Positions 1-508 are shown, counted from the first letter of the stretch. The stretch: DNA of 508 bases from Escherichia coli (GCF_003334255.1 NZ_QOWU01000229.1), one strand, 5' to 3'. Numbers and translations: made by a program. Notes: generated by a model not told the origin, from the letters alone.

Positions 1-108
1 TCCACCAGCACTCGAGGATTATGAAATATCTGTATGGATTCACGGCCCGGCTTAAGGACCACCAGCCCAAGCTCAGGCACCAGAACAGGTCTAAGTAATA
101 CCCGCACG

Positions 109-381
109 TTACCTCCAGATCCGTTGCTGGAAAGTGCGGGACGGACGTGGTGGGCGTTCGGAATAAGGCAGCCTGACAGAGATTATCCAGTGCCGATAGT
201 CGAGACTGAGAGCTTTCTTAACCTCGAACCCGCGCCTGCGGTAAGAATGAATCAGCCATTCGGCCTGTTCTTCAGTACATGGTGGGTGTTGGTACCAGTC
301 GGTTTTAAATGCGTGTGAACGCCGCTCATGCCGGATGGCAAGGTCGGTATCAGAATTGTGAAATTTGGTTTTGTGCGCCAT
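109..381 (-). CDS. hypothetical small basic protein (90 aa), family not recognised
   Basis: ATG at 381..379 and TAA at 111..109 on the minus strand. In the minus-strand sense it follows a terminator, promoter-like hexamers and a leader with a weak Shine-Dalgarno-like AGAG 6 nt before the ATG. Second-codon-position composition is gene-like (A about 34%) and the first ~70 residues have a balanced, hydrophilic composition. Against: first codon position is C-rich rather than G-rich, several rare Arg codons (CGG, AGG) and one ATA, and a Pro/Arg-rich C-terminal tail (SERPPRPSRTFQQRIWR) that looks low-complexity. Confidence 0.4.
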   Translation of the reverse strand: MAHKTKFHNSDTDLAIRHERRSHAFKTDWYQHPPCTEEQAEWLIHSYRRRGFEVKKALSLDYRHWIISVRLPYSERPPRPSRTFQQRIWR

Positions 382-390
382 CTGTTTTCT

Positions 391-405
391 CTGCTGGCGC
401 AGCAG
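391..405 (-). promoter_or_regulatory. dyad CTGCTG-GCG-CAGCAG in the leader (possible operator or leader hairpin next to the ribosome-binding region)
   Basis: Plus-strand 391-396 (CTGCTG) is the reverse complement of 400-405 (CAGCAG), with a 3-nt spacer. On the minus transcript this gives 5'-CUGCUG-CGC-CAGCAG-3' immediately 5' of AGAAAACAG-AUG, so the 3' arm abuts the SD-like purines. Confidence 0.3.
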
Positions 406-416
406 GTGTCAGGTGT
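403..416. repeat. perfect tandem heptamer CAGGTGT x2 (ACACCUG-ACACCUG on the minus-strand leader)
   Basis: Plus-strand 403-409 and 410-416 are both CAGGTGT. A third CAGG follows at 418-421, and CAGCAGG precedes at 400-406. It lies in the putative 5' leader, 22-35 nt upstream of the ATG at 381. Confidence 0.6.
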
Positions 417-432
417 TCAGGCTGACGTGCGA

Positions 433-462
433 ATTGTAAACCAGAATGCCAGGAAAAAACAA
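433..462 (-). promoter_or_regulatory. candidate sigma70-type promoter for the 381..109 ORF
   Basis: Minus-strand TACAAT (complement of 433-438, 5/6 match to TATAAT). The best upstream -35 is a weak TTGTTT (complement of 457-462, 18-bp spacer) overlapping the terminator U-run. The alternative TTTACA (complement of 435-440) as a -35 has no convincing -10 at 16-18 bp. No extended -10 TG. Predicted start near 426. Confidence 0.3.
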
Positions 463-480
463 AACCCGCCGAAGCGGGTT
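454..480 (-). terminator. rho-independent (intrinsic) terminator, minus-strand only
   Basis: Minus-strand transcript reads 5'-AACCCGC-UUCG-GCGGGUU-3' followed by UUGUUUUUU. Plus-strand 463-469 pairs with 474-480 (7 bp, 5 G:C), loop 470-473 is a C(UUCG)G tetraloop, U-run is the complement of 454-462. On the plus strand the same stem is followed by AAGUGCGGG, not a U-run, so it is unidirectional. Confidence 0.8.
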
Positions 481-508
481 AAGTGCGGGTGCGTTGAGGA
501 TGCCTGAC
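479..508 (-). CDS. probable 3' end of a minus-strand gene running off the right edge (partial, frame tentative)
   Basis: In the minus frame aligned to the window edge the sequence reads V-R-H-P-Q-R-T-R-T-stop, with TAA at 481..479 inside the terminator stem. The terminator implies a transcript arriving from the right. Only about 9 codons are visible and the other two minus frames are also open here. Confidence 0.3.
   Translation of the reverse strand, partial: VRHPQRTRT

Follow-up and report, generated by a model that had tools for sequence, protein, structure and literature searches.

The 508-nt stretch of Escherichia coli DNA analyzed here (the window) is 100% identical to part of many E. 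coli chromosomes, such as that of the ST131 strain EC958, and some version of it is found in 4,531 of the 5,426 complete E. coli genomes. In EC958, the window is located in a Qin-like lambdoid prophage, and its neighbors there, comprising hokD, a 273-nt ORF, a DUF968/YdfU-type gene, rusA and the gene of the antiterminator Q, all lie on the minus strand. The 273-nt ORF (the minus ORF) spans 90 amino acids from an ATG and is opposed by a plus-strand ORF of 94 amino acids (the plus ORF), which also starts with ATG (Table 1). The lower coordinate of every triplet equals 1 mod 3 in both, which means that the two ORFs share codon boundaries; the coordinates and the register reproduce those given in a preliminary description of this DNA. 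The shared register applies to positions 109..318 of the plus ORF, where it is antisense to the minus ORF, while positions 34..107 are antisense to the 5′ end of the DUF968 gene in a different register. PGAP annotates the minus ORF of EC958 as a ‘hypothetical protein’ (WP_023141427.1), and PGAP or the depositors annotate it, at 273 or 279 nt, in 14 of 14 other records inspected. The plus ORF is annotated in none of these 15 records.

Table 1. Features of the 508-nt window.
Feature	Position	Strand	Evidence
Protein-coding gene (very probable), 90 aa, PHROG 1212 member	109..381	−	ORF, PGAP, phrog_1212, dN/dS, homologues
Conserved protein core, codons 26–90	112..306	−	Codon periodicity, dN/dS 0.11, alignments, AlphaFold2
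Qin-type N-terminal extension, codons 1–25	307..381	−	No periodicity, dN/dS 0.51, missing from distant homologues
Shadow ORF, very probably not a gene	34..318	+	dN/dS, stops in relatives, no distant homologues
5′ end of DUF968/YdfU-type gene, GTG start 107..105	1..107	−	Annotation, phrog_96, own wobble variation
GGAGG Shine-Dalgarno for DUF968 gene	112..116	−	Sequence; positions invariant in 13 copies
Intrinsic terminator, 3′ end of upstream hokD transcript	453..480	−	Terminator scan

The antisense arrangement of the two ORFs is mildly non-random. A single ORF of at least 85 amino acids was present in 37% of 3000 dinucleotide shuffles of the window, and an antisense pair with at least 85 amino acids each and an overlap of at least 200 nt was present in 3.1% of them, as expected if the window holds a real gene. 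The preliminary description regarded the evidence obtainable from the single sequence as mixed, which is accurate. The first codon position contains about 57% purines in the plus ORF and 43% in the minus ORF, as had been reported; in the plus frame, this richness mirrors the pyrimidines (57%) at the third position of the minus ORF. The plus product is indeed rich in Pro, Ser, Thr and Arg (12, 8, 9 and 8 residues, respectively) and contains one Lys, its codons include the rare AGA (three times), AGG (twice), ATA (twice), CTA (once) and TTA (twice), and no Shine-Dalgarno sequence is found at a usable distance before its ATG at position 34. A codon-usage log-likelihood trained on 20 neighboring genes gave +0.4 bits for the minus ORF and −1.5 bits for the plus ORF. 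Codon statistics of a single sequence are unable to separate the two frames.

While composition and codon scores remain undecided, a dozen diverged copies of the locus decide between the strands at once. We aligned 13 E. coli and phage copies displaying 83–100% DNA identity. In the overlap (112..318), 44 of 69 sites vary at position 3 of the minus codons (position 1 of the plus codons), 13 of 69 at the shared position 2, and 8 of 69 at position 1 of the minus codons (position 3 of the plus codons), so that the variation peaks on the wobble position of the minus frame (chi-square p = 8e-12). Pairwise Nei-Gojobori comparisons resulted in a median dN/dS of 0.10 (range 0.03–0.26) for the minus frame. 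The median for the plus frame was 2.7 with a minimum of 1.0 and no pair below, although a partner frame distorts the dN/dS of the frame that it overlaps, and a high value in the plus frame is, by itself, compatible with weak dual coding. Thus, the test on aligned orthologues suggested in the preliminary description returns a value below 1 for the minus frame only. The part of the window belonging to the DUF968 gene behaves in the same manner with respect to its own frame, its variation being concentrated on its own wobble position (17 of 34 sites). Furthermore, four distant 201-nt homologues of the minus ORF show pN lower than pS in the sense frame in six of six pairs.

The fate of the two ORFs in the same alignment is equally different. 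None of the 13 copies has a disrupted minus ORF: it encodes 90–92 amino acids from an invariant ATG, and the only indel among the copies is in-frame and 6 nt long. The plus ORF is shortened to 36, 48 or 73 amino acids in 8 of 12 relatives by stops at positions equivalent to 142, 178 and 253 of the window, and the changes that create these stops are mostly synonymous for the minus gene. Considering (i) the position of the variable sites, (ii) the dN/dS values and (iii) the distant homologues of the minus product described below, the sequence comparisons make it very probable that the Qin-like prophage has a genuine gene in the minus ORF and that the plus ORF is a non-functional shadow frame. 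A same-register shadow opposite a real gene was among the three readings that the preliminary description put forward without choosing, and it is the one that stands; its other two, that the plus strand codes and that neither strand does, are refuted.

The minus protein belongs to PHROG 1212. Its residues 25–90 match the complete profile (positions 1–66 of 66) with an E-value of 4.4e-36, its core has the motif and the length (about 66 amino acids) of the family, and its gene is located in a ninR region. The members of PHROG 1212 include ‘Orf QD1’ of N15, STM1021.1n of Gifsy-2, gp51 of mEp237, ORF47 of PY54 and phiES15_017. A tblastn search with the minus protein found 61 phage records, down to 31% identity, that range over Klebsiella, Salmonella (Gifsy-2), Yersinia PY54, N15, Edwardsiella, Erwinia, Hafnia, Pantoea and Cronobacter; the identity to the members from Gifsy-2, mEp237, PY54, phiES15, Klebsiella and N15 is 31–47%. 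A profile search of 1.84 billion representatives yielded 109 clusters at 50% identity, mostly of proteins of about 66 amino acids, and the exact minus product occurs on at least 1000 contigs in a predicted-protein collection of about 15 billion entries. The minus protein and the members share the motif W-F/Y..H..C-T..(Q/E)-A..L...Y-R.R-G ... L-P ... P-R-P-S..Q-Q-R-I-W, in which W29, A40, Y47, G51, L71, P72 and W89 are invariant or near-invariant in the alignments. The homologue of N15 is a 75-aa ORF ending in ...KPSKTFQQRIWE that lies between gene 40 (Q-like) and gene 41 at about 35930..36157 of NC_001901.1 (locus L018, 1992..2219, plus strand), where the RefSeq record has no gene annotated; the UniProt entry ‘Orf QD1’ is longer, at 142 amino acids.

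Several family members are longer than the profile, among them two AFDB proteins that are named DUF1364/YbcO and contain the PHROG 1212 domain. We considered such fusions as Rosetta-stone evidence of function and rejected them: the longer members that we inspected are chimeras of a type common in degraded prophages, in which the partner is replication protein O, a tail protein or a frameshifted HNH fragment. One member (P0121) contains an internal duplication and was examined together with the family chimeras P0148, P0177 and P0139. Decay of prophages or errors of assembly appear to have produced the duplicated and chimeric members, which do not look like real fusions.

The minus protein consists of two parts that are under different constraint. 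In the core, 40, 11 and 7 of 65 sites vary at positions 3, 2 and 1 of the minus codons, respectively (p = 4e-11), and this region aligns with the whole 66-aa protein of the distant homologues. AlphaFold2, supplied with an alignment of 47 sequences, predicts the structure of the protein with a mean pLDDT of 84.5 and block means of 96–98 for residues 31–70. The predicted fold is composed of a β-strand (residues 26–31), an α-helix (37–50) and two further β-strands (54–58 and 65–73), and is followed by the conserved tail P-R-P-S..Q-Q-R-I-W. Fold searches with this β-α-β-β structure returned no informative match and none that points to a specific function, a sequence-profile search of solved structures gave nothing better than E = 0.48, and neither ORF has a match in Pfam, NCBIfam or PADLOC.

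In the first 25 codons, variable sites are distributed without periodicity (16, 14 and 12 of 24 over the codon positions). This extension contains the only available in-frame start, the invariant ATG at 381..379, and accommodates the 6-nt in-frame indel seen among the relatives. It is specific to Qin-type copies, and AlphaFold2 assigns block-mean pLDDT values of 56–68 to residues 1–20; the extension is weakly constrained and, judging from the model, probably disordered. When a possible origin of the extension from the 3′ end of a NinB gene was considered, an in-frame stop was encountered upstream of the ATG.

The plus ORF is open because the minus gene avoids three codons. In the shared register, a stop in the plus frame is possible only opposite a sense TTA, CTA or TCA. 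The minus gene has a single codon of this type among its 90, the TCA of Ser22, and this is the codon that creates the TGA terminating the plus ORF (316..318). When the minus protein was kept fixed and its codons were resampled synonymously according to the usage of the 20 neighboring genes, the antisense frame stayed open for at least 69 codons in 12.6% of the resamplings, which makes the shadow ORF unremarkable once the minus gene is accepted as real. Long ORFs in frame −1 have been explained by codon usage in the annotated gene (Mir et al. 2012, PMC3454372), and an origin of such shadow ORFs from sense codon usage was proposed earlier (Merino 1994 and Silke 1997, both as cited in PMC3454372). 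The plus ORF resembles these frames in having the same register, no selection of its own and no preservation in relatives, in addition to the scarcity of TTA, CTA and TCA opposite it. There is no difference of substance; the plus ORF extends for 75 nt antisense into the DUF968 gene, where it is in another register.

The databases agree with this assignment. A tblastn search with the plus product found only 20 records, all from near-identical E. coli phages with at least 71% identity and alignable as DNA, and its exact sequence does not occur in the collection of about 15 billion predicted proteins. Of the two products, therefore, only that of the minus ORF has distant homologues, homologue conservation for a single frame being what the preliminary description had named as decisive. 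The plus product does match phrog_2734 (E = 1.7e-14). This 82-position profile corresponds to the C-terminal half of the plus ORF and to the N-terminal half of a separate plus ORF at 328..507 (window positions 190..430 overall); because it also matches this second ORF, it represents calls made on one and the same antisense frame, and phrog_2734 appears to consist of shadow-ORF calls from variants that lack the TGA at 316..318.

The ORF at 328..507 is in the same frame as the plus ORF and encodes 59 amino acids. It is annotated by PGAP (WP_001112736.1), matches phrog_2947 with an E-value of 1.3e-44 and has calls on some 1000 contigs. On the strand opposite it lie codons 1–18 of the minus gene, the leader between the genes and the hokD terminator. 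Among seven copies, whose diversity is low, its variable sites number 3, 7 and 4 over the codon positions, without periodicity, and one copy contains an internal stop; this ORF is probably another spurious call.

Among the alternatives to a single minus-strand gene, the one that survives best, albeit as a very improbable one, is that both strands code, as a true pair of antisense overlapping genes like those described for EHEC. There are published reports of such genes for E. coli O157:H7. The plus frame of the window contains only one stop between positions 34 and 507, it is open for at least 129–131 codons in 4 of the 12 relatives, and it reaches 137 amino acids in K-12. The openness itself is, however, expected from codon usage (P = 0.13), the plus product is of low complexity (Pro, Ser, Thr and Arg), and the stops in the plus frame occur at four different sites among the copies, most of them synonymous for the minus gene. 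A second coding frame should, moreover, leave a trace in the first one. The wobble positions of the minus frame are free to vary both in the overlap and in the 112..306 core, and synonymous sites are at least as diverse in the minus core (pS = 0.36) as in the neighboring DUF968 gene (pS = 0.23), which speaks against constraint by a second functional frame. Neither reduced synonymous variation in the mother gene nor purifying selection on the embedded frame, two marks of an overlapping gene, was thus observed. Translation of the longer plus-frame ORFs of the K-12 and O157 variants (at least 129–137 codons) is likewise highly doubtful.

The reverse assignment, with the plus ORF as the real gene and the minus ORF as its shadow, has almost no probability left. 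It draws on the purine-rich first codon position, on the invariance of ATG 34 in the 13 copies and on the phrog_2734 match, but ATG 34 is invariant because it is situated inside the constrained coding sequence of DUF968, and the phrog_2734 profile represents calls on this very antisense frame in variants without the TGA at 316. This assignment would also require a gene that runs opposite to the whole operon and overlaps two annotated genes, whose third codon position is the least variable one (8 of 69) at a median dN/dS of 2.7, which is interrupted by premature stops in 8 of 12 relatives, which has no homologues by tblastn beyond near-identical DNA and whose exact product has never been called in the 15-billion-protein collection. 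The third possibility, that neither ORF codes and that what separates hokD from DUF968 is a long untranslated leader or a decayed remnant, is in keeping with the frequent location of the locus in cryptic prophages, the MG1655 reference annotation, which has no gene at the homologous place, the lack of a Pfam or NCBIfam family and the absence of coding periodicity in the first 25 codons, but can be dismissed with near certainty given the dN/dS and strong 3-nt periodicity of the core, a minus ORF that is intact in 13 of 13 copies with in-frame indels only, a protein conserved across genera, including the complete deposited genomes of N15, PY54, mEp237 and phiES15, and a confident fold prediction.

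In the records inspected, the family is always found in the early or ninR region, on the same strand as and upstream of a nuclease gene. The homologues lie between NinB/Orf (phrog_319) and an HNH (phrog_131), NinG or exonuclease gene, upstream of rusA and Q: the order is NinB/DUF1367, homologue, NinG or HNH, (rusA) and Q in Gifsy-2, mEp237, phiES15 and Klebsiella, and the homologue of N15 is followed by the gene of a predicted exonuclease subunit. The placement just upstream of the early-region nuclease gene is tight in the window and in five of six distant phages, in which the homologue and the next gene overlap by up to 4 nt or are separated by at most 2 nt; PY54, with 48 nt from the stop of the homologue to the next start, is the exception. 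The DUF968/YdfU-type gene that occupies the downstream position in the window also belongs to an HNH endonuclease family (phrog_96, E = 1.3e-162), and DUF968 proteins are described as combining an Orf-like DNA-binding domain with an HNH motif (PMC4118853). The window gene differs from the distant members of PHROG 1212 in three respects: its protein carries an additional, weakly constrained N-terminal extension of 24–26 amino acids, it follows hokD or rem insertions whereas they follow NinB/Orf, and it precedes DUF968 whereas they precede a short HNH/DUF1364 gene or NinG.

The junction between the minus gene and DUF968 reads ATC TGG AGG TAA C GTG, the GTG of DUF968 being 1 nt away from the stop of the minus gene. 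The last two sense codons of the minus gene (TGG AGG) create a GGAGG sequence 4 nt before this GTG, and the equivalent ends in distant homologues are TGGGGGTGA or TGGGAGTAA. The terminal codons for Trp and for Arg, Gly or Glu, followed by the stop, thus double as the Shine-Dalgarno sequence of the downstream nuclease gene (112..120 and its equivalents in loci L015–L020). For this reason, the conservation of the near-invariant C-terminal Trp may act partly at the level of RNA. The ribosome-binding site of the minus gene itself, AGAGAAAACAG-ATG, is weak. The better expression context that had been ascribed to the minus ORF in the preliminary description consequently holds for its position in the operon and its tight coupling to the downstream gene, but not for its own ribosome-binding site.

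A scan of the window for promoters gave no promoter-like site on the minus strand and one weak candidate on the plus strand (173..200, 9 of 12 matches). The hokD terminator lies 72 nt before the ATG of the minus gene (window 382..453), and the hokD coding sequence is at 6549..6704 of locus L001. With no promoter-like site on the minus strand of the window and a terminator this close upstream, the minus gene is most likely expressed through antitermination, from transcripts that start at phage promoters farther upstream. The minus gene lies in the delayed-early ninR operon; in the mechanism that we propose, it would be transcribed with this operon by reading through the hokD terminator, and the minus gene and DUF968 would probably be translationally coupled.

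The leader region around hokD contains additional elements. A hok/sok leader is present upstream of hokD (Rfam sok match, 106.7 bits). An isrK-like Rfam match over the hokD 3′ UTR and terminator (window 459..508 and beyond; locus L001, 6459..6540, minus strand; E = 0.0019) was discarded as noise, its 27.2 bits being below the gathering score of 50; it is probably a case of terminator similarity. A perfect small hairpin, CTGCTG-GCG-CAGCAG, occupies positions 391..405, 10 nt upstream of the ATG of the minus gene, and is kept in the hokD-linked copies but not in the rem-linked ones. Among the hokD-linked copies, the stretch 382..508 is far more conserved than the coding region.

Going by the gene neighborhood, the minus protein could tentatively be viewed as a small protein accessory to the recombination and nuclease module of the ninR region and made together with the downstream HNH/NinG-type nuclease. 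A more specific and still more speculative proposal is that it may be a dedicated partner of that nuclease (a regulator, an inhibitor or a specificity subunit), whose expression would be tied to the nuclease via the embedded ribosome-binding site, and that the Qin-type N-terminal extension may have arisen when insertions of hokD, rem and relBE displaced NinB/Orf as its original upstream partner. In lambda, the small ninR ORFs ninD, ninE and ninF are found in the Orf–Rap(NinG)–Q interval; being short genes packed between recombination genes and Q, they are positional analogues of the minus gene. The organization of the ninR region has been described (PMC4118853).

The strand question is resolved, and its answer is ordinary, as the minus gene is already annotated and its family already catalogued; the significance extends little beyond annotation hygiene. 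In this regard, shadow frames of the locus have apparently entered family resources as phrog_2734 and, probably, as phrog_2947 and WP_001112736.1. PHROG 1212 is widespread in enterobacterial lambdoid phages, and its placement beside recombination nucleases provides a modest lead.

The reference annotation of MG1655 seems to lack this gene as well: it shows nothing between ydfU and rem, yet an intact and conserved 92-aa homologue is encoded there at about 1644306..1644584 of NC_000913.3 (locus L002, 2807..3085, minus strand), which PGAP annotates in K-12 derivatives as WP_012304870.1. The shadow ORF opposite the K-12 homologue is, at 137 amino acids, longer than the real gene. Published information on ydfU, rem and hokD was limited, in our search, to a genome announcement.

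The slot of the minus gene adjoins that of K-12 Rem (b1561), both being situated between hokD and ydfU. Identity of the two proteins was nevertheless rejected, as their sequences bear no resemblance by eye and rem is a separate gene upstream in the K-12-type loci. In three records (ON470583.1, ON470612.1 and ON470619.1), the homologue of the minus gene is labelled ‘toxin to Rem’. This label is unsupported, there being no PADLOC, Pfam or NCBIfam match and no similarity to Rem by eye. In K-12-type copies, the unrelated gene rem sits between hokD and the small gene as an insert of about 370 bp (locus L009, 754..1005; window junction at about 382..400), and the window matches K-12-type loci in two pieces. 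An insertion of another kind, about 300 bp long, is present in CFT073. The junction upstream of the small gene is a hotspot for inserted cargo genes, namely hokD, relBE and rem.
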